Of a DNA stretch of 64,000 nucleotides, positions 1,757 to 60,420 are shown one piece after another. The translations under genes and the position numbers were made by a program. Every line of letters begins with the position of its first letter. Positions within the stretch are counted from its first letter, which is position 1. Source of the stretch: Escherichia phage JLBYU40; the sequence record NC_105514.1; one strand, 5' to 3'. Below the pieces are notes generated by a model. That model was not told the DNA's origin, ran no database searches, and saw only the letters and a list, made by a program, of their open reading frames with translations.

Positions 1757-2289
1757 TAATAAGTAACCAATTCCTGTACAAATCGCAGGCTGTTATCACT
1801 GTTTGCGCCAGTTGCGTAAACTAAACGAGTAGATTCATAGTTGTAATCTAGAATCGTATTATCCAGATGTACATCTGCCTCTAGTTTTTGATCACTAAAG
1901 ATTGTGGATACAAAAGCACTTTCAATATGTCCATGAATATACATTTCTAGAAGAAGGTTAGCCCCACCTAGAACTACTGTCTGCTGATCTTTCAGAAATG
2001 TAGGTAAAGCATCCCCAATCTTAGAAATTGGAGTGTAAATATCATGTGTAATATCGTCTGGCAGTGGACGATCAGCACGAATAAATAGGTCAGAAGCTCC
2101 AATCATACGTTCTCTAACGGCGTATGGAAGAGCTAAATAAGTACCCGCACCAATGATGATGTTATCTGGATTCAACACGTCCAGTTGAGAATAGAAAGCA
2201 TCTAGTTCTTCTTTGAAGGAACCCCATGGAAGTTTACCGCGGAGGCCGAACTCCCCATTCGGCCCAACTGCATACATTGCTGTAATCAT
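1756..2289 (-). CDS. frd: Dihydrofolate reductase
   Basis: N-terminal MITAMYAVGPNGEFG...LPW pattern, 177 aa, overlaps thyA start (ATGA). Confidence 0.8.
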   Translation of the reverse strand: MITAMYAVGPNGEFGLRGKLPWGSFKEELDAFYSQLDVLNPDNIIIGAGTYLALPYAVRERMIGASDLFIRADRPLPDDITHDIYTPISKIGDALPTFLKDQQTVVLGGANLLLEMYIHGHIESAFVSTIFSDQKLEADVHLDNTILDYNYESTRLVYATGANSDNSLRFVQELVTY

Positions 2290-9807: not shown

Positions 9808-9970
9808 TCCAGAAAACATGCTTATTGAGCAATGGAACTTTGGTTATAATGCTGGTGTAGCTACTTGTATTGCTAGATTGGATACGCTTATTAAGCAAGA
9901 AAAGGTACGCCCTGAGGAAGCAATTTTACTCCAAAATATTATCGAAGGATTTAAGCAAGGAATCGTATAG
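9776..9970 (+). CDS. Hypothetical protein (about 64 aa)
   Basis: Start placed at ATG 9776 after a GGAGGAG RBS, within ORF-track 9692-9970. Confidence 0.35.
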   Translation: MDFLNQNLKSNPENMLIEQWNFGYNAGVATCIARLDTLIKQEKVRPEEAILLQNIIEGFKQGIV

Positions 9971-10806
9971 TGCGTAGATTAGTTATTATTAGCGGTGCAG
10001 GTTTGAGTGTTGAAAGTGGTGTACGAGCTTTTCGTACTGATACTGCTAGTGGTAAAGCATTGTGGGATGATTATGATCTAGAAGAAGTATGTAATATTCA
10101 TGCCTTTCGTGGTAATTTTTATCATAAAACCCATATGTTTTACAACAAACGTCGTGAAGAGCTAAAAACTGTTGAACCCAATCTTGCACATTTGCGTATT
10201 GGTGAATGGTATAAACAATATCCAGGTCAAGTAGTAAACTTGACTACCAACGTTGATGACCTTATTGAGCGTGCTGGCGTTCCACATAGTGACATTCTGC
10301 ACATTCACGGATATTTAAAAGAGGTTGTTGTAGCTGATAGCTACAATAGTAGCAATAAACGGATTATTGATGTAGGGTATAATTCTATTGATCCAGATGA
10401 TTATAAATGGGTTAAACCTAATGTAATCTTCTTTGGAGAACATGCTCCTGCATACGCAGAAATGTATAATGTTTTTGATGGTATTACCAGTCAAGATATG
10501 ATCATTGTGGTTGGTTGCTCTAATCAAGTAATTAACTTCTACTGGGAATTATTTCCTGTTCTTAATTTGACTGCTGCCAAACTAATGGTAGTTAACTACT
10601 ATGATAGTGCCATAGCAGCAGAGCCAGGCTATCAAGGTATGACTCGTAGTGAGATGTACCAACTGGAAGATCGTGGTATTCCTTACTGGAGTAAAGGTGC
10701 AGTAGATGCTTTTAGTGACCCTGATTTTATTGCTCGTGTGGAAGCCCATTTAGAGGGTAGACCTTATGTGCCGGAGAGAAGGGGAAACAGATATGTCCAT
10801 AGTTAA
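9970..10806 (+). CDS. Sir2-like (sirtuin-fold) NAD-binding protein lacking a zinc ribbon
   Basis: GAGLSVESGVRAFR, TTNVDDLIERAG, catalytic HG in LHIHGY, PNVIFFGE; no CxxC...CxxC pair. GTG start. Confidence 0.6.
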   Translation: MRRLVIISGAGLSVESGVRAFRTDTASGKALWDDYDLEEVCNIHAFRGNFYHKTHMFYNKRREELKTVEPNLAHLRIGEWYKQYPGQVVNLTTNVDDLIERAGVPHSDILHIHGYLKEVVVADSYNSSNKRIIDVGYNSIDPDDYKWVKPNVIFFGEHAPAYAEMYNVFDGITSQDMIIVVGCSNQVINFYWELFPVLNLTAAKLMVVNYYDSAIAAEPGYQGMTRSEMYQLEDRGIPYWSKGAVDAFSDPDFIARVEAHLEGRPYVPERRGNRYVHS

Positions 10807-11470: not shown

Positions 11471-11899
11471 ATGTTCAATAATGTATTCTCTAAAGAAGCT
11501 AACCCAATTTTGGTTAACTTTTGGCGTACTCTCCCGGCTAGCCTGTATAATGAGGCTATTAACTCCTTGAAAATATGGTGTGAAAATAATGAAATCTCCT
11601 TTGCTTTTAAAGATGATATTGATGAGGCCCCCTGTATTGGTTTAGTTGTGCAGGTAGAGGATGGTCTTGAAGAGATTGTGGGCTGGAAAGAGTTAGACGA
11701 AATGGGCTTAGTTTTTGCGTTAAATTATAAGCTGTTTATGCCTGCTAAGCATCGCCTCGTTGTTAACCATAAAACTAGTGAATCTCCTGGTTTTCAGGTT
11801 AATGAACGTTATGGTTGGTCTTACTCACCGGAAGAAGTAAATGAGGGGATTCAGAAACTTCGCCGTTTTGGTTATCAGATTCCGGGTTTAACTGCTTAA
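11471..11899 (+). CDS. Hypothetical protein, paralogue A
   Basis: Shares the PCIG...W.ELDxMGLxxALNxxLFxP core with the next ORF. Confidence 0.45.
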   Translation: MFNNVFSKEANPILVNFWRTLPASLYNEAINSLKIWCENNEISFAFKDDIDEAPCIGLVVQVEDGLEEIVGWKELDEMGLVFALNYKLFMPAKHRLVVNHKTSESPGFQVNERYGWSYSPEEVNEGIQKLRRFGYQIPGLTA

Positions 11900-11908
11900 G
11901 GAGGCAGA

Positions 11909-12301
11909 ATGGAACAAGTATATTGGCGTCAGATTGATCCTAGTTTGGTGAAGCGTGCGGAGAAGCTGCTACAACGTTGGTTGGGGGTAAGACAAGCCTC
12001 CTTCACTTTTCCGGAGCAGCAAATAGACGATCCCTGTATTGGTGTTTTCCTATCAGGCTACGCTAGGGAATGGGAATTGGATTGGAATGAATTGTCTGCT
12101 ATGGGCTTGATTGTTGCCCTAAACTTCTCTTTGTTCCATCCACGTGGTTTGGCCATATGTCGTGTGCCTGATGACGGTTGTTCGCCCCATCTTTTACAGG
12201 TGGAAGATGATATTTGGGAGTACACTCCAGATATTCTCACAGAAGCTAAAGAACAATTAAATCGTGTTGGGATTTATGTTCCGGGCTTAAATGATGAATG
12301 A
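11909..12301 (+). CDS. Hypothetical protein, paralogue B
   Basis: Tandem paralogue of 11471-11899. Confidence 0.45.
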   Translation: MEQVYWRQIDPSLVKRAEKLLQRWLGVRQASFTFPEQQIDDPCIGVFLSGYAREWELDWNELSAMGLIVALNFSLFHPRGLAICRVPDDGCSPHLLQVEDDIWEYTPDILTEAKEQLNRVGIYVPGLNDE

Positions 12302-12369
12302 TTTTTATTAGCTGAAATTTGTAATCCGGGCTATTAGTGCTCGGATTATTACATAATCTTTCCAGTCGA

Positions 12370-12423
12370 TTGACAGTCAAAATAAATTGTCGTTGACAAT
12401 TTGGATGGATTATGTAATAATAT
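12370..12423 (+). promoter_or_regulatory. Promoter with two palindromic TTGACA-containing operator-like sites upstream of the HNH gene
   Basis: Palindromes TTGACaGTCAA (12370-12380) and ATTGTCgttGACAAT (12386-12400), followed by an AT-rich -10 candidate and GGAGGTGAGG RBS. Confidence 0.45.
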
Positions 12424-12440
12424 ATGTATTGGAGGTGAGG

Positions 12441-12893
12441 ATGTCATTCACACAGCAAGAACTTTTAGATAACTTCCGATATGAAGATGGTAAGTTATTT
12501 AGAACTACAGGAAGAAATGCAGGGAAAGAATGTTGTGTTTCTACGGGTAACGGATATTATCGTATATCTCTAGGGAATAGGACTATGCTTCGGCATAGAG
12601 CAATATTTTTAATGCATCATGGATACTTACCTGATTTAGTAGATCATGTGAATACTATAAAAGGTGATGATCGTATTGAAAATCTTAGAGAGCAGACAGT
12701 GTCCGGTAATCTAAGAAATATCAAATATAAGAAAGGAATGCATGTTTACCCTTCTGGTAGTAAGAACTGGCAAGTAGTATTTACTATTAACCGTAAACGT
12801 ATAGTTAAAGGAACATATGACAACTATGAGGTTGCATGTTCTATGGCCAAGATGTTTAGAGGTCAATTATACGGTAGGGAATCAATCCAGTAA
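12441..12893 (+). CDS. HNH homing/nicking endonuclease with AP2-like DNA-binding domain
   Basis: HNH core HRAIFLMHHGYLP...VDHVNTIKGDDRIENLREQTVSGNLRN; start at ATG 12441 after the RBS. Confidence 0.75.
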   Translation: MSFTQQELLDNFRYEDGKLFRTTGRNAGKECCVSTGNGYYRISLGNRTMLRHRAIFLMHHGYLPDLVDHVNTIKGDDRIENLREQTVSGNLRNIKYKKGMHVYPSGSKNWQVVFTINRKRIVKGTYDNYEVACSMAKMFRGQLYGRESIQ

Positions 12894-13124
12894 AATTTCA
12901 TTTGCAAGGGAGTATTATTTTATAGTATAATATTCCCATAAATGAGAGACATTAGTAAAAATTGATTTTGCTAATTTTTCTTGTTTACAATCCGCGATAC
13001 GGAACAGTTAGGCTGCCCCATTAAGGGTTGTTTTAACTGTTACGTGTTAGTTTTTAAACAAATAGTTAATAGAATACTTAGCGATCTGCGTCCCATAGGA
13101 ACCCTGGTAAGGCCTCGAAGCAAC

Positions 13125-13220
13125 CTAGTATGAGGTGGTTGTGAAGTGAGATGGGAGGAGTGAAAAACTCCGAGACGTGATTCTGTAAGTTATATTGCAT
13201 CTAGTATGAGCTAGTATATG
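13125..13220. repeat. Direct repeats CTAGTATGAG (x2) plus CTAGTATATG in a GC-rich non-coding block
   Basis: Copies at 13125-13134, 13201-13210 and 13211-13220; GNRA-like hairpin GGAGT-gaaaa-ACTCC at 13157-13171. Confidence 0.5.
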
Positions 13221-13428
13221 AAGCATTAGGTGAGCAAATCTGGCTTAGCGGCCATCCTCAAGGATTTGTGCGGTATAACAAAGCAGCAGCGCAGCGTGAA
13301 AGTGGAAGTTGCCACCCCACTTCAGTATTTGCGATTAATTTGTTGAGAAATTGACAGTAACAGTTGTTCTATTCTTTCTGAATAGTCCTAAAGAAAACTT
13401 ATTTCATTTCCAACACAGGAGTATTGTT

Positions 13429-16215
13429 GTGTTTTCAATCCTACAAGGTCATGCAGGATTTCATCGCGATTTAGCCACAGGCAATTGGCGAGAAGTTAAA
13501 GCAGAAGACTATCTTTTTGCTAAAAGATTTTCCTCAAAGCATCCTGAAGGTAAACCAGCTTCAATGCCCTTCAAGTTTGATGTAATTGATGAAGTTGATC
13601 CTCAAACCCTAGTAGAAATGCTTCCTCTTATGAGACGTTTAACGTCTGACCCTCATATCGTTGCGGTACGAGGTCGATGTCTTGCACCTAAAAATAATGT
13701 GCGACGTAAGAAGGGCAACTTTAATGTATCTAACCCAAGTCATATAATTGCAATGGACGTGGATGGTATTGTAGATACAGGTGGTTGTAACAAGTTTGAT
13801 CTTGTTGGCATGGCCCGACATATTATTAGGATGTTAAATAGTATTAGTGAGGATATGTTTCCTCTTGATGCAGGGTTTATCGCTCATGCATCATCTTCGG
13901 CTGGGCTAAAACCAGGTATCCGAATGCACTTAATACTAGAATCTAATGTTAAAGTAACTCAGGGTCAAATCAAGTTCTTATTTACATCTATCAATGAAAG
14001 TAGTAGACAAAAGTATGGCTTTGATATTGCCGACTTAGCTTATTACTCTTCCGTACAGCTCCATTATTTTGCAGATCCGTTATTTACAGATGGTATAGTA
14101 GATCCGTTTAAAGCGGAGGGTGCTTCACGTCTGGTATTTGTTAAGGGTTCTAAAGTAAATTTACCCAATAATCTGGTTGACTATGAAACAACTAGAGGCG
14201 AGTTTAAAGAGGAGTTTTACTCTTTACTCGATCAAATTAAAGGTAAAAAAGCCGCCTCCGATAAAGTAGAGGAAACTATCAGCGAACTAGAAGAAGCTGA
14301 GGATGGAGTGTATCTACGTATTATTCCTAAACTCTATCACAGGGCTTTAGAGGATGGTGTTGATTTTGCATGGCTAGAAAAAGAAATCCGTCCAGCCTTA
14401 TCAGAGTATATTGCAACTAAAGATAATAGTCGTAATATTCAAGACTACTTTAACAACGGTCGTAAGCAGGCTCTGAAAGCGTTTGTTAATAATTCTAAAC
14501 GTGATATACCGGATGTTTTAAAAGGTATTCCACTTAAAAAGCTAGAAACTAACTCTCTAGAGACTGATAACTTCTTGAAATTAAATACTGTACCACCAGA
14601 AGGTTATATGACTTTTGTAAAAGCAAGTCTAGGTACAGGTAAAACTACGGCGGTTGTGCGTTGGCTGGATTCAGGAGTTATTAAGGGTAATTTCTTAGCA
14701 ATTACCAATACTAGGGCACTAGTGTCTTCAAATGCTAAGAAATTTAGTGCAGGACAATATGATAAGTCTGTAGATATGCTTAATTTTAAGCGCGGTGCTA
14801 TTGACCGTATGTCCACAACTATTCACTCTTTACATAAGTTCAAGAGTTTTATTGGTCAAATTGATGCAATCTTTATCGATGAATGTGATGCTGTAATGAA
14901 TGACCTATTATTCGCCCCGGTTGTTAAGCAACGTCGCGAGTGTATTCAGGTTCTTCGGGATATTCTTGCAACTGCAAAAATCATTATATTATCTGATGGT
15001 GATATTAGTGCTGAAACAATTGAAGCATATGGTTCTTTGATTGAGTTTGATAAACCGGTTGCATTTTATAATCATCACCGTAAGATGCTGTCAAAAGCTC
15101 ATGCTTATGAGTTCCCTGATGAATCTAGTATTTGGGTTGCACTTCAGACTTCTCTAGAGATGGGTGAGAAATCTATTCTGGTATCTGACTGTGGGCCGGA
15201 TGAGCTGAATGAGAAGGGCATGGCATTGCGTCATAATACGGGTGCATTAGTTAAGGAAATCCACTCAAACTCTACGTCTGATGTAGATATTAGACGTATC
15301 CTGGATTACACAACTAATGAGTTAATTGACCAACAAATTGATTGCTTATTATGTAGTCCATCCGTAACGAGTGGTGTTGACTTCAACTATTTTGATAACG
15401 TATTCGTTATTACTAGAACCAGTAATCAGGCGCCAAACATGCGTTTCCAAGCAATCAGGCGCGACCGTGGTGCTCAGAACATCTATTATTTTATTGATAA
15501 ATCCACTAGTGGATTCTCCGCAGGTTCCGAACAATATAATATTGATGAAGGTTGGCTGGAGTTAGCACAGCAATTATACGCACGTCGCAGAGAGCTAGAA
15601 TCTAGGAACTATACTAGTACTTTACGTTATTACTTGCTTGATCAGGGTGCAACTATTGATATTTTCAGCGAAAGCTGGGGAACTATTGAAGGTGCTGGTA
15701 AAGAGTACACAGAAGAGCGAATTAAAGCTATTCTACATTCAACTCCGGATTATTGTGCTCCACGTCATGCGGATGCGTATGAAGCTAAACTACTTCTTGT
15801 TCGCTATTATCATCTCGAGTCTATTAAAGATGTAACAGTTGAGCATGTTGAACAATATATCAAAGATAAACCAAATGATCGAGCTGCATTCTTCCATAAG
15901 ATGCATGAGATGTTCTGGGAAGATATTAAGAAGTGTTCAAATGTGACCATTAAACCATTCATAGAAGCTCTGAAAGGTAAGAAGAAGGATTTCTTCCTTA
16001 AAACAGGTCAGAGTGCTAACCCAAAATATGCTAGAATGTATCTTGGTATGATGGGTATTGGTAAGGATATGAACACTGAAAATATTGTAGACTGGTACAG
16101 AACCTATTGTAAAATCGAGTGTATGCCAATTCCTTTCAAATTCATGACAGAGGAAGAGAAGGCTATGGCAGAAGAAGTAATGTCCGAACTTGGAGCAACC
16201 AATGAAGATGCATAA
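13429..16215 (+). CDS. Primase-polymerase (AEP)-helicase fusion; putative replication initiator/origin-binding protein
   Basis: N-terminal AEP motifs IIAMDVDGIVD and IRMHLILES; Walker A SLGTGKTT and Walker B IFIDECDAV. Start placed at GTG 13429 after CAGGAG RBS (ORF-track start 13351 sits in a promoter-like TTGACA). Confidence 0.65.
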   Translation: MFSILQGHAGFHRDLATGNWREVKAEDYLFAKRFSSKHPEGKPASMPFKFDVIDEVDPQTLVEMLPLMRRLTSDPHIVAVRGRCLAPKNNVRRKKGNFNVSNPSHIIAMDVDGIVDTGGCNKFDLVGMARHIIRMLNSISEDMFPLDAGFIAHASSSAGLKPGIRMHLILESNVKVTQGQIKFLFTSINESSRQKYGFDIADLAYYSSVQLHYFADPLFTDGIVDPFKAEGASRLVFVKGSKVNLPNNLVDYETTRGEFKEEFYSLLDQIKGKKAASDKVEETISELEEAEDGVYLRIIPKLYHRALEDGVDFAWLEKEIRPALSEYIATKDNSRNIQDYFNNGRKQALKAFVNNSKRDIPDVLKGIPLKKLETNSLETDNFLKLNTVPPEGYMTFVKASLGTGKTTAVVRWLDSGVIKGNFLAITNTRALVSSNAKKFSAGQYDKSVDMLNFKRGAIDRMSTTIHSLHKFKSFIGQIDAIFIDECDAVMNDLLFAPVVKQRRECIQVLRDILATAKIIILSDGDISAETIEAYGSLIEFDKPVAFYNHHRKMLSKAHAYEFPDESSIWVALQTSLEMGEKSILVSDCGPDELNEKGMALRHNTGALVKEIHSNSTSDVDIRRILDYTTNELIDQQIDCLLCSPSVTSGVDFNYFDNVFVITRTSNQAPNMRFQAIRRDRGAQNIYYFIDKSTSGFSAGSEQYNIDEGWLELAQQLYARRRELESRNYTSTLRYYLLDQGATIDIFSESWGTIEGAGKEYTEERIKAILHSTPDYCAPRHADAYEAKLLLVRYYHLESIKDVTVEHVEQYIKDKPNDRAAFFHKMHEMFWEDIKKCSNVTIKPFIEALKGKKKDFFLKTGQSANPKYARMYLGMMGIGKDMNTENIVDWYRTYCKIECMPIPFKFMTEEEKAMAEEVMSELGATNEDA

Positions 16216-16720
16216 ACCAATGCCTCCTATGGCATTTATCCTAGAAAAGCTTAGGTATGACGAAAGTACTGGGGACTTAATTTGGTTATCTGGCCCAAGG
16301 AAGGGAAAGATAGCGGGCTCCAAAATGAAAACTGGGAGACAGTTAGAGTTTATGATAAATGGAGAGCATACAGCTTACTTAGCCCATAGAATAATCTGGT
16401 TTATAAAGACAGGCGAAGATCCTGGAGATAAAACTATCGACCACAAAGACGGTGATAGTTTAAACAACTTGTGGGATAATTTACGTAAGGCTACCTATTC
16501 CGAAAATGGAAAGAATAAGAAGTGTTCTACTAATTCTACCGGATTCACTGGAGTTGTAAAACGAGGTAATAGGTATATGGCCTACGCTTACTGCAATGGA
16601 AAACAGCATATTTTTGGTAGACGAGATACCCCGGAAGAAGCCCATCAGCTATACCTTAGGGGAGTTAAAGAACTGTTTGGTGAATTTAATCCCTCGGAGA
16701 GATATGACAGTGAAGAATAA
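16202..16720 (+). CDS. HNH homing/nicking endonuclease with AP2-like domain
   Basis: AHRIIW...IDHKDGDSLNNLWDNLRKAT plus GFTGV...RYMAY; start at ATG 16202 after GGAG. Confidence 0.75.
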   Translation: MKMHKPMPPMAFILEKLRYDESTGDLIWLSGPRKGKIAGSKMKTGRQLEFMINGEHTAYLAHRIIWFIKTGEDPGDKTIDHKDGDSLNNLWDNLRKATYSENGKNKKCSTNSTGFTGVVKRGNRYMAYAYCNGKQHIFGRRDTPEEAHQLYLRGVKELFGEFNPSERYDSEE

Positions 16721-58552: not shown

Positions 58553-58989
58553 TATAAGAACCTTGCGAATCCTGATTTTGTTTCAGTCTTGACTTGTGTC
58601 TTTTCTTGAGGATTCTGTAATTTGTCTTTCTGCTTTTGAACCCACACTTTTTGCTTATTAGCAGAAAATAAAGGAGGTTCTTTTGTGTAAACCTTATGTA
58701 ATAATTGGTGATGGGGTACACAAAGGGTAACAGTGTCTTCTACTAGCTCATGCCTATATCGATCATAGAATGCCGTCCTATTTGAAAGGACTGTTTCTTC
58801 GTCAGTGAAATCCAATTGGAGTTCTTTAGCAAATTTTTTAACTAGTAGAGACACCGTATGGTAATGATGAAGCTCTAATTCTTCAGCACAACCGCAGATA
58901 GCACATTGAGAGTCTTTTTTATATTGACTTTTTATTCCGTCTCTCATAAGGGATATAGCATCGCGTTTATATTTTATATTGCTTGCCAT
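58552..58989 (-). CDS. HNH endonuclease (zinc-finger type) in the packaging module
   Basis: CAICGC...LELHHYH...LCVPHHQLLH; start at ATG 58989 after GAGGAG. Confidence 0.7.
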   Translation of the reverse strand: MASNIKYKRDAISLMRDGIKSQYKKDSQCAICGCAEELELHHYHTVSLLVKKFAKELQLDFTDEETVLSNRTAFYDRYRHELVEDTVTLCVPHHQLLHKVYTKEPPLFSANKQKVWVQKQKDKLQNPQEKTQVKTETKSGFARFL

Positions 58990-59103
58990 AGTGTTCTCCT
59001 CAACTGTATGAATATAGTATACATAATCGTATCGAATTTGTAAAGGGGATTTTAAAATACAGGAATGGGATACCAACTGAGTAGTATCCCATCCTATACT
59101 TAT

Positions 59104-60420
59104 TTATTTACCACGGGAAATAGAGTAAATTCCATAGCGGAGCGCATCACAAAGGTGAGAGTTAGCATCATGACGTGGTTTTTCACGTGATAATTTCTCT
59201 TCACCTTCTTGGAAGTCCCACTTATAGTTCTGCAATGCATGGATTAATGAGGAACATGAAGCATCTACAATAATCTTGCCCTGCTGGAATAGCGCTTGCA
59301 AGCATGCTAGACCATCTAGGACAGATTTTTTAGCTGGAGCCGATGCAATTTCATGCTCATAAGCTAAGTCCTGGCGGAACTGAGCTGCTGCAGAGTCAAC
59401 AAAAATACGATCAACTTTATAACGATCTATACAGTGCTGAATATAAGCAGCATGCTGAGCTGTAGTTTTCTCCGCCTGCTGGTACTCTTCTAATACGTAG
59501 TAAGTATCCGTATCGTAATGATACTTAATAGTAAGAACTGCTGTAGGATCACGATAACCAACGTCAATACCAAGCAACGTTTCGAATGCTTCATCATCTT
59601 TAAAGAAGTGACGCATACCTTTGAGATCTTTAACATGATCGATAGCATTAAAGGTATCAAATATCTGTCCTTCAAATACAGAGAAGTCAGCCTCGTATTC
59701 TTGGCGGAAATAGTTTTTACTAACTGTACGACGTGCTTCCTCAATATCATTCAAGTCGGCACGTGGGTTATCACGATATGTACCATGAATAGATACCCAG
59801 TTAGGCAACGTATCATCAAATCCGTAGGCGTAAAACTCTTTAAACCAGTTACCTCCACGAGGGGTAGAAATAAATAGAGCCTTAGAATTAGGTTTATCTA
59901 GAGTAGGACGCAGCTGAACCCTGAAGGCATCACCACCCACATCAGAAATTGCCGCCTCGTCAAAAATGATAAAGTCATATGAACGTCCAACCGCGGAGTC
60001 AGCCTGAGCCGCGGAAGCTAGTTTAAATAGAGAACCATTAGCTAACTCAATCTCTTTATCTTTAGCGTTTTCACGTTCGGTTTGTAGGCCGTACTTCTTA
60101 ATAAGGCCACGAATCTGAGACCATCCGATATTGGCCAGTGAGTAGTTAGGGGCAACTACTAGTACCTTCACATTAGGTTCCAGCAATTTTAGGAACCCAA
60201 GTGTATACGCTATAAAAGATTTACCTACACGACGTGATACACACGCCGTTACAAAACGGTGTCTAGGGTCTTCTAGGGCATTAATAATTGCTATTTGAGG
60301 GCCATTAGGCGTGATACCCTCTTGTGCTAGTATTCCGGAAACAGGTAGACGAAAGAAACGTTTGTCTATTCCGAAATCAATAACATCTACTGTGTTAACA
60401 TAGGGTCTTGACACTTCCAT
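59104..60420 (-). CDS. Terminase large subunit
   Basis: Walker A VSRRVGKS, Walker B FIIFDEAA, nuclease motif GIDVG. Confidence 0.9.
   Translation of the reverse strand: MEVSRPYVNTVDVIDFGIDKRFFRLPVSGILAQEGITPNGPQIAIINALEDPRHRFVTACVSRRVGKSFIAYTLGFLKLLEPNVKVLVVAPNYSLANIGWSQIRGLIKKYGLQTERENAKDKEIELANGSLFKLASAAQADSAVGRSYDFIIFDEAAISDVGGDAFRVQLRPTLDKPNSKALFISTPRGGNWFKEFYAYGFDDTLPNWVSIHGTYRDNPRADLNDIEEARRTVSKNYFRQEYEADFSVFEGQIFDTFNAIDHVKDLKGMRHFFKDDEAFETLLGIDVGYRDPTAVLTIKYHYDTDTYYVLEEYQQAEKTTAQHAAYIQHCIDRYKVDRIFVDSAAAQFRQDLAYEHEIASAPAKKSVLDGLACLQALFQQGKIIVDASCSSLIHALQNYKWDFQEGEEKLSREKPRHDANSHLCDALRYGIYSISRGK

Follow-up and report, generated by a model that had tools for sequence, protein, structure and literature searches.

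The genome of Escherichia phage JLBYU40 carries, directly upstream of the replication gene D2, a predicted structured RNA of about 490 nucleotides (nt) that is previously undescribed and matches no described family. The DNA analysed is a 64,000-nt stretch of this genome (record NC_105514.1), hereafter "the window", and the locus of interest lies between positions 12,302 and 13,428. An earlier note on this DNA had observed an HNH endonuclease gene and a structured non-coding block bracketed by 9-bp direct repeats, and had proposed either a mobile endonuclease cassette carrying a structured RNA or origin, or an iteron-type origin beside the gene for its initiator. Comparison with related phages makes a different anatomy very probable: a mobile HNH gene and a resident structured RNA, side by side and independent of each other. 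Judged from alignments and computed folds, five phage lineages share one fold of this RNA despite the divergence of their sequences.

Conserved structure of the D2 leader RNA

JLBYU40 is a T5-like phage (Tequintavirus, Demerecviridae). Its region 11900-14000 matches 444 phage records, the T5-like set to which all counts out of 444 refer, and is closest to that of Escherichia phages VAH1 and BB1 (98.3%). The non-coding block, from 12926 on, is resident in 444 of the 444 records. As previously described, the 535 bp at 12894-13428 are devoid of any real open reading frame (ORF) and hold just short, unconserved ones: none is conserved by position, frame, or start codon, and each plus-strand frame is interrupted by 6-21 stops in every lineage examined. 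Transcription from the early-type promoter (Table 1) would start at about 12937, a reading that rests on consensus matches and third-party annotation, and scanning detected no terminator-like site between this promoter and D2. The resulting leader corresponds to T5 positions 59074-59544. The T5 reference annotation lists a terminator (58952-58976) and a promoter (58999-59073), leaves the next 471 nt blank, and places D2 at 59545. The same succession of terminator, strong promoter at an equivalent distance, long non-coding stretch, and D2 is found in each lineage examined, the non-coding stretch measuring 470-490 nt in most of them, ~610 nt in the Providencia-phage type, and ~760 nt in the Proteus phage RP7 types. 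In Vibrio and Aeromonas phages, which are distant Demerecviridae, the 700-1600 nt before the D2 homologue are unannotated or hold tiny ORFs.

The block had been described as GC-richer than the rest of the phage. This holds for 13000-13300 only (0.43-0.47 versus ~0.39), whereas 12894-13000 is AT-rich (0.31-0.33); positions 11800-12200 are as GC-rich as 13000-13300. A scan for known RNA families, suggested in the earlier note, matched no Rfam family: with the 4227 models of Rfam 15, the interval 12200-13600 gave nothing at gathering threshold, the best candidates having expectation values (E) of 0.66-9 and 13-20 bits versus thresholds of 30-230. ARAGORN predicted neither transfer RNA nor transfer-messenger RNA, and no similarity of the leader RNA to E. 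coli genomes was found.

The leader occurs as two alleles, A in JLBYU40 and B in T5. The two agree completely over the first ~100 nt and almost completely over the last ~75 nt, and are 34-63% identical in the ~310 nt between. Despite this divergence of the core, the block is 495-499 nt long in both. Further diverged versions are found in Pectobacterium phage DU_PP_V, in a second Pectobacterium type (L079), and in a Klebsiella-phage type (L030). Landmarks remain equidistant from the start site, with GGCUGC at +74 to +79 and CUUAGCGG at +304 to +312. Folding of the leader yields -138.5 kcal/mol (z = -3.9) for the plus strand of the window and -107.2 kcal/mol (z = -1.8) for the minus strand. The A core alone reaches -99.5 kcal/mol (z = -3.6) and the B core alone -87.9 kcal/mol (z = -3.2); folded independently, the two cores adopt the same architecture.

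Support for individual base pairs was counted in two alignments: A5, comprising eight sequences from five lineages (the two T5 alleles, two Pectobacterium types, and one Klebsiella type), and A7, comprising the central domain without type B. The controls were the same structures slid by 1-3 columns and, for A5, 500 column shuffles. With the RNAalifold consensus of A5 (62 pairs), 91.4% of the cells are paired versus 39-50% in the slid controls, 34 of the 62 pairs display compensatory changes versus 7-16, and the covariation score is 0.51 versus 0.10-0.17; not one of the 500 shuffles reaches the observed values. The A7 consensus (55 pairs) behaves similarly, with 90.7% of cells paired versus 38-45% and 34 compensatory pairs versus 8-15. 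A structure obtained without optimisation on the alignment, the minimum-energy fold computed for the leader of the window alone (159 pairs), still gives a paired fraction of 74% versus 38-45% in A5, and 57 compensatory pairs versus 24-33. Among the non-Watson-Crick cells of A5, 90 are G·U and 4 are A·C. This excess indicates that the structure is read on the plus strand, the one transcribed from the promoter.

The predicted fold is composed of a 5'-terminal hairpin, a nearly invariant 26-nt element, and a 333-nt core closed by a long-range helix (Table 1). Hairpins of differing sequence occupy the same 5' place in DU_PP_V, L030, and L032, and the 5' hairpin with its U-tail is terminator-like in some lineages only. 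In T5, DU_PP_V, and the Providencia type, the closing helix is built from unrelated sequences and counts 19-21 bp, not including extensions; in A5, its helices 104-113/446-455 and 129-137/422-431 include 12 pairs with compensatory changes. Within the core, the two helices of the arm 13189-13279 show such changes at 6 of 8 and 5 of 9 pairs (A7). This arm encloses the motif hairpin, whose apex GGCUUAGCGGCC (13242-13253; GGCU-UAGC-GGCC, with a UAGC loop) is the most conserved feature and the signature of the family. Its stem, by contrast with this apex, has five entirely different sequences across the five A5 lineages, and matching motif hairpins are recognised by inspection in the unaligned Providencia type (L032) and in Proteus phage RP7 (L036). 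Hairpin 2 exhibits, within type A, a compensatory double change from AAGUGG/CCACUU to AAGGGG/CCCCUU. Its loop AAGUUGCCACC is conserved in the A, DU_PP_V, L079, and L030 types; the type B hairpin at this place has a different loop. A pseudoknot joining a loop to the 5' region (GCCACC with GGUGG) was considered and rejected, inspection showing that it is not kept in L079 or type B.

Most of the repeats and hairpins listed in the earlier note find their place in this fold. The hairpin at 13157-13171 is present and conserved. The one placed at about 13290-13312 corresponds to a conserved hairpin whose true position is 13300-13322. A hairpin at 13003-13041 is possible in T5-type phages; it is absent from the relatives infecting Pectobacterium and Klebsiella, and competes with the conserved closing helix. 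The repeat CTAGTATGAG does occur twice, at 13125 and 13201. AACAGTT, said to occur three times, has two direct copies (13003 and 13359), the third being inverted (AACTGTT at 13035). The second copy of the 9-mer ATTGACAGT and two of the three AACAGTT copies are strands of the closing helix, which explains these repeats; the second CTAGTATGAG copy overlaps the hairpin 13198-13232 and is thus accounted for as part of an RNA helix. Inverted repeats GTAACAGTT/AACTGTTAC are found 313 nt apart.

Some leaders are longer. A 98-nt insertion directly follows the 5' hairpin (after the equivalent of 12982) in the type A loci L012 (1460-1557) and L034 and in the type B locus L025. It is flanked by an 8-bp direct repeat, TTTTTCTT, and contains a hairpin of its own, AUUUACGG/CCUGUAAAU. 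This insertion could be a mobile element of miniature size, or an RNA module that some leaders carry and others lack, and probably explains the matches ~100 nt longer in phages Gostya9, DT57C, and Tennessee.

The distribution of the RNA was surveyed with two sequence patterns, GCTTAGCGGC-N50-70-CCACCCC in IMG/VR and ACRGAACAGTNNGGCTGCNNCAT in a metagenome collection. True matches are restricted to T5-like, Pectobacterium-type, and Klebsiella-type phages, and wherever the contig is long enough, a D2 homologue lies directly downstream of every one of them. Neither scan revealed a new lineage or a copy away from D2, the remaining hits being attributable to chance, in unrelated DNA that is mostly GC-rich or coding. 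A covariance model of the 97-nt motif region (R1) recovers the A and B types with E = 1e-16 to 1e-20. It also matches 2187-2268 (plus strand) weakly (19.8 bits, E = 0.022), most likely by chance, the apex GGCUUAGCGGCC being missing there. In the Providencia and Aeromonas types, a likeness is visible by inspection, consisting of a stem around a CUUAGCGG-like loop and the common strings GUGCGAAG and CUAGCAAU.

Two of the distant arrangements deserve description. Aeromonas phage TS3 (L041:1-1609) has ~1.6 kb without annotated genes upstream of its D2 homologue, with two hairpins of UAGC apex, one at ~484-515 (CCCGAAAAGCU-UAGC-GGUUUUUCGGG) and another at ~741, which may represent a duplicated or expanded version of the RNA. 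The Proteus RP7 types (L036:1435-1464; L108 and L109:1935-1964) possess a near-consensus promoter (TTGACA, 18 nt, TATAAT) located 37 nt before D2 and downstream of a ~700-nt non-coding region, with a second CUUAGCCG hairpin-like site just ahead of it.

Possible functions of the RNA

The gene that follows the leader had been labelled a primase-helicase. This label is not established, because the gene is a homologue of T5 D2, a UL9-like superfamily 2 (SF2) helicase characterised biochemically as an unusual bipolar helicase, for which its authors suggested a role in initiation (PMC3632103). Pfam Herpes_ori_bp matches the protein at amino acids (aa) 394-533, residues 388-533 match the herpesvirus UL9 helicase core (PDB 9hgj, E = 1.9e-5), and the protein belongs to PHROG 3712. 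For the N-terminal domain, no family was found in Pfam or the PDB; a word-indexed homologue search returned just two fragments, and a single-sequence AlphaFold model has a predicted local distance difference test (pLDDT) score of 35.

The two leader alleles extend their divergence into this domain. Between A-type and B-type phages, identity is 93-100% in the upstream genes, 100% in the first 100 leader nt, 34-63% in the leader core, 77-91% in the first ~1.3 kb of D2, and mostly 89-98% in the remainder, with short divergent patches. Residues 1-390 of D2 cluster by leader type: identity is 81-92% between A and B, and within type A it is 99-100% for most phages and 85-97% for the L014 variant. 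The helicase part (residues 391-928) shows no such clustering, with 92-98% identity in all comparisons. None of the 12 phages compared is a recombinant in which the core and the D2 N-terminus have come apart. The core and the D2 N-terminus thus display a pattern that suggests a specificity module, and the RNA presumably acts in cis together with D2.

The preferred mechanism, advanced tentatively, is that of a regulatory leader. The early promoter would transcribe the RNA straight into D2, with no terminator in between; the folded core would be bound by a protein, for which the N-terminal domain of D2 is the most plausible candidate, and this binding would set the stability or translation of the D2 messenger RNA (mRNA), as the operators of T4 genes 32 and 43 do. 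Like the T4 gene 32 pseudoknot leader and the T4/RB69 gene 43 operator, the RNA is folded and precedes a replication gene of a virulent phage as its 5' leader, and the co-segregation of its variable core with a domain of the encoded protein can be likened to these operators. It differs from them in size, with ~490 nt and ~20 helices as compared with 20-40 nt, that is, about ten times larger, and in that conserved occlusion of the ribosome-binding site (RBS) is not seen; binding by D2 is a proposal only. With riboswitches it shares a conserved folded domain in the 5' untranslated region with invariant unpaired nucleotides. Unlike riboswitches, it matches no known aptamer and has no conserved terminator or anti-Shine-Dalgarno platform, its domain is larger, and the helicase context suggests no ligand.

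Several points weigh against this interpretation, some bearing on the RNA itself and others on its proposed role. The RNA is predicted here from sequence, annotation, and computed folds, and a full-text literature search found no mention of it or of the region. Two of the three covariation tests used structures derived from the very alignments on which pairs were counted; there are only ~5 independent lineages, and three of the eight A5 rows are near-identical type A sequences. Model R1 scores the Providencia types at E = 0.24-1.3 and the Aeromonas type at 1.8, with a decoy at 0.028, so that homology in Providencia, Proteus, Vibrio, and Aeromonas phages is statistically unestablished. As for function, base-pair probabilities support no conserved anti-Shine-Dalgarno helix or expression platform, which weakens a simple translational-switch model: RNAalifold proposes pairing of UUCUUG (12978-83) with CAGGAG (13416-21), and the partners of the Shine-Dalgarno sequence in the partition function differ among lineages. 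In the RP7 types, D2 may not depend on the long leader, given the promoter that lies close to the gene. Finally, plain linkage over ~1 kb would give the same pattern for the core and the D2 N-terminus.

A close second to the regulatory leader, although itself rather unlikely, is that T5 has its primary replication origin here, in the early promoter and its structured transcript; the transcript would act through a persistent R-loop or be processed into a primer, and D2 would be loaded there through its allele-specific N-terminal domain. Promoter-driven origin transcripts are exemplified by ColE1 RNA II, T4 oriF and oriG, and the T7 primary origin. As in these systems, a strong promoter directs a ~500-nt transcript near replication genes, and as in ColE1 RNA II, relatives preserve the secondary structure rather than the sequence; a promoter-driven RNA of ~490 nt with a conserved fold forms a parallel. 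The element is located at 48.5-49% of the T5 genome, and its RNA-like strand is G-rich, with a GC skew of +0.25 to +0.27 at 13000-13300. Core allele and D2 N-terminal domain co-segregate, as the two halves of an origin-initiator specificity pair do. The earlier note had the block adjoining a presumed initiator gene, and this stands: the RNA lies directly 5' of UL9-like D2, the only candidate initiator, is co-oriented with it, and an initiation role has been proposed by the D2 authors (PMC3632103).

Against an origin stand several observations. The iteron-type origin of the earlier note can be set aside, as there is no array, only two-copy repeat families of 9-25 nt, and the repeats it cited are strands or arms of RNA helices; no distinct unwinding element was found either. 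Cumulative GC skew has no inflection at the locus and turns at ~6 kb and ~36 kb, where it tracks gene orientation, GC skew in phages following transcription. Unlike for ColE1 RNA II, no antisense RNA I-like partner of the transcript is apparent: no promoter for an antisense regulator was found within the leader, the nearest promoter-like site of the minus strand being at 12894-12866, upstream of the leader promoter. It also runs on into a protein-coding gene and would have to double as the D2 mRNA. Multiple origins in replicating T5 DNA were reportedly described by Bourguignon et al. in 1976, to go by the title, which counts against this reading. A more specific proposition is a little less likely again: the RNA would be a ColE1-RNA-II-like origin transcript and the long-sought cis element of T5 replication initiation, its variable 333-nt core being the part that the N-terminal domain of the matching D2 allele recognises.

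Less probable still is a processed, stand-alone non-coding RNA, in which the closing helix would be a ribonuclease III (RNase III)-type stem freeing a ~300-nt trans-acting core, for host takeover, anti-defence, or as a scaffold, the position before D2 being incidental. Processing stems of the RNase III type are found in ribosomal RNA precursors and in T7 early RNAs, and the long, nearly perfect closing duplex has indeed outlasted the turnover of its sequence in every lineage. Conserved apical loops on an insulated core domain would suit the binding of partners, the RP7 types have a separate D2 promoter downstream of the RNA, and its size and complexity recall the large orphan phage RNAs ROOL and GOLLD. 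As with ROOL, GOLLD, and HEARO (the omega RNA found beside HNH-containing IscB), it is large, multi-branched, covarying, phage-borne, and adjacent to an HNH gene. It differs from them in lacking an Rfam match, in its narrow range (T5-like Demerecviridae), and in being always 5' of D2; unlike the HEARO/IscB pair, its adjacency to HNH is accidental, the HNH gene being missing from ~90% of RNA-carrying genomes. An independent RNA fits poorly with a position that is syntenic and co-oriented with D2 in every true match without exception, and with the co-divergence of the core and the D2 N-terminus; neither a terminator nor another 3'-end signal was found, nor any similarity to host sequences or Rfam families.

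A purely DNA-level element, in which the inverted repeats would be binding sites, cruciforms, or hairpins of single-stranded DNA in an origin or a packaging or regulatory site, evolving in concert with a DNA-binding protein, and the RNA covariation a by-product, is very improbable. Inverted repeats such as GTAACAGTT/AACTGTTAC and the proximity of a protein annotated as origin-binding would suit it, and concerted change of repeated protein sites could mimic compensatory change. It is contradicted by the ratio of G·U to A·C cells and by the 31 kcal/mol that favour the plus strand. The ~20 distinct, mostly short local helices are unlike repeated protein sites, no repeat family exceeds two copies, and only an RNA would account for the conserved promoter and for a hairpin placed at the transcript's 5' end.

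The HNH cassette and the 9-bp repeats

From its sequence and its distribution, the HNH gene is best described as a mobile cassette encoding an ordinary free-standing homing endonuclease. The protein matches HNH_3 above the curated Pfam cut-off. It had been read as an HNH-AP2 endonuclease; the ORF and the HNH_3 domain are confirmed, and the AP2 part is not, no Pfam AP2 match appearing even at E <= 10 and only a sub-threshold match to Arm-DNA-bind_3 (E = 0.039) being seen.

The gene is present in 53 of the 444 records, at full length in 41. It occurs in 4 of 28 T5-like IMG/VR loci, in both leader alleles, with 99-100% amino-acid identity. The corresponding empty site, aligned in the HNH-less phage T5_ev212 and locus L009, consists of the T5.107 stop, a terminator hairpin, ~40 nt, the early promoter, and TGAGAGACATTAG; the cassette stands in place of these ~40 nt. 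The hairpin and the promoter on either side of the cassette (12317-12348 and 12894-12942, respectively) have diverged from their native counterparts, as would fit co-conversion during homing. The hairpin 12323-12347 corresponds, in diverged form, to the rho-independent terminator found after T5.107 in phages without HNH; its T-run is missing, and the terminator scan called none there. In phages Shivani, AKFV33, and SHSML-45, the HNH DNA is 100% identical to that of the window, and the leaders are of type B, ~62% identical to the window's.

Free-standing HNH homing endonucleases of virulent phages include the F-Tfl enzymes of T5 and those of the T4 mob genes. The cassette resembles these in its HNH_3 domain, small intergenic size, and own expression signals, as well as in its patchy presence among near-identical genomes, a conservation well above that of its flanks, and the apparent co-conversion of the adjoining flanks. 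It departs from the expected AP2 architecture, no AP2-type DNA-binding domain being detectable with Pfam. In Shivani (L002:1490-1670) and SHSML-45 (L028), the cassette is followed by its promoter, a duplicate of the first 39 leader nt, the native promoter, and the full leader, that is, two tandem promoters and a partial leader duplication. This arrangement sets the cassette apart from those endonucleases and looks like a scar of its acquisition. In the window, two arms of 20 nt (12345-12364 and 12402-12421) form an inverted repeat of 90% complementarity that surrounds the first copy of the 9-mer and overlaps the -10 region of the HNH promoter-like site; it may be an operator or a hairpin controlling endonuclease expression.

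The 9-mer ATTGACAGT is found exactly where it had been reported, at 12369-12377 and 13350-13358, with no further copy in the window. The caution that it may recur by chance was well placed: 23 of 100 shuffles of the window contain at least two copies, and a further, unrelated exact 9-mer pair is present within the same 1.1 kb. The two copies do not bracket a mobile unit. They assort independently, one with HNH and the other with the type A core: the ten type A loci without HNH contain copy 2 only, the 13 type B loci without HNH contain neither, the type B loci with HNH contain copy 1 only (two loci) or neither (one locus), and both are found in the type A locus with HNH alone. No genome misses 12378-13349 as a block, and the structured RNA is not cargo of the endonuclease, because it is resident in all records and the HNH gene in just 53. 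The mobile endonuclease and the structured RNA of the earlier note are therefore both retained, and only the carriage of one by the other is abandoned. A single mobile element spanning 12378-13349, with an endonuclease, RNA or origin cargo, and a 9-bp target-site duplication, can practically be discarded in spite of the exact repeat at either end and the HNH gene in between, the segment never being missing as a unit, the repeat count being at chance level, and the real junctions lying at ~12317-12348 and 12894-12942. A transposon with target-site duplication is likewise refuted by the comparative data, with junctions elsewhere and 9-mer copies that segregate separately.

Neighbouring genes and significance

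The features of the locus are collected in Table 1. The last gene ahead of it, the T5.107 homologue, is a paralogue of the T5.106 homologue (11471-11899; T5.107, 11909-12301; both on the plus strand), with 32% identity (E = 6e-20). Pfam confirmed DUF7415 for the 11909-12301 protein, the only one of the two paralogues scanned, and both carry an unsupported "exonuclease" label in some records. Farther upstream, an ORF of 278 aa (9970-10806, plus strand) matches in position the "Sir2 (NAD-dependent deacetylase)" annotation of Pectobacterium phage DU_PP_V. Downstream, a second HNH_3 gene, outside the main finding, overlaps the final 26 nt of D2 and encodes a protein 27% identical to the first HNH. 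D2 is thus accompanied in JLBYU40 by a different homing-endonuclease gene on each side; in most relatives, "hypothetical protein" is the sole annotation at the position of the second.

Table 1. Coordinates of genes, signals, and structural elements at the locus (window numbering)
Feature	Coordinates	Strand	Basis and remarks
T5.107 homologue (DUF7415)	11909-12301	+	Pfam E = 1.1e-31; T5.107 in AKFV33 and T5 annotation; last gene ahead of the locus
Hairpin AATCCGGGC..GCTCGGATT	12323-12347	+	Inverted repeat; aligns with terminator hairpin of L009 and T5
Mobile HNH cassette core	12349-12893 (approx.)	+	Palindromic region, promoter-like site, RBS, gene; absent from T5_ev212 and L009
9-mer ATTGACAGT, copy 1	12369-12377	+	Within palindrome TTGACAGTCAA (12370-12380); part of HNH cassette; HNH-positive genomes only
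Sigma-70-like promoter (TTGACA, 17 nt, AATAAT) ahead of HNH	12393-12421	+	Consensus scan, 11/12; consensus match only
Free-standing HNH_3 homing-endonuclease gene (predicted)	12441-12893	+	150 aa; Pfam HNH_3 E = 2.3e-11; PHROG 99 "HNH endonuclease" E = 1.5e-41
T5 early-type promoter (TTGCAA, 18 nt, TATAAT)	12902-12931	+	Consensus scan; homologous site annotated "promoter" in AKFV33 and T5
Non-coding leader RNA of D2 (predicted)	12937-13428	+	~492 nt; fold z-score, covariation, no conserved ORF
5'-terminal hairpin	12944-12982	+	Starts ~8 nt past the start site; U-rich tail; "terminator" in Shivani record
Nearly invariant 26-nt element GAUACGGAACAGUUAGGCUGCCCCAU	12996-13021	+	Identical in A and B alleles, near-identical in Pectobacterium and Klebsiella types; true matches of the metagenome scan with this motif in D2 leaders only
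Long-range closing helix of 333-nt core	13034-13067 with 13333-13366	+	32 bp in the window's minimum-energy fold
Inner helix	13086-13091 / 13289-13294	+	3' strand GCGCAG; A7 helix 8-13/227-232: all cells paired, 4/6 pairs compensatory
Branched arm	13092-13155 (13092-96/13151-55, 13115-17/13147-49, 13120-25/13137-42)	+	A7 consensus, pair counts
Hairpin GGAGU-GAAAA-ACUCC	13157-13171	+	Conserved; stem GGGG/CCCU in DU_PP_V and L079
Arm closed by 13189-96/13272-79	13189-13279	+	Encloses hairpin 13198-203/13227-32 and motif hairpin
Motif hairpin	13234-13269 (outer stem 13234-41/13262-69)	+	7/8 pairs compensatory (A5)
Hairpin 2	13300-13322	+	Stem AAGUGG/CCACUU, loop AAGUUGCCACC
9-mer ATTGACAGT, copy 2	13350-13358	+	In 3' strand of closing helix; type A cores only
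Small hairpin CUAUUC-UUUCU-GAAUAG	13369-13385	+	Spacer before RBS; invariant in A and B, thus no covariation evidence
Shine-Dalgarno of D2, AGGAG	13417-13421	+	Sequence
D2 gene (T5.108 homologue)	13429-16215	+	GTG start, 928 aa; annotation "replication origin binding protein"
Second HNH_3 endonuclease gene	16190-16720	+	176 aa; Pfam HNH_3 E = 1.3e-12; outside the main finding

Although T5 is a classical model phage, to our knowledge its replication origin and the recruitment and regulation of the D2 helicase have never been defined. The RNA provides a discrete, testable element for T5 initiation or D2 control, of ~490 nt and with a fold that has strong comparative support. It lies outside Rfam, stands constantly before D2, and varies in step with the D2 N-terminal domain, itself uncharacterised. 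It is of a known kind, a structured phage leader or an origin transcript, yet larger than the T4 operators and unrelated to ROOL, GOLLD, or HEARO. For annotation, ~470 nt that are now left blank or filled with spurious "hypothetical proteins" in hundreds of T5-like genomes, therapeutic phages included, are concerned, and the neighbouring HNH gene is an optional passenger that should not be counted into the RNA element. As a regulator of D2, the RNA would be an unusually large and elaborate phage leader. As an origin RNA, it would explain initiation in T5; specificity would then reside in an exchangeable module made up of the RNA core and the initiator domain, and T5-like phages would replicate from an RNA-defined origin.

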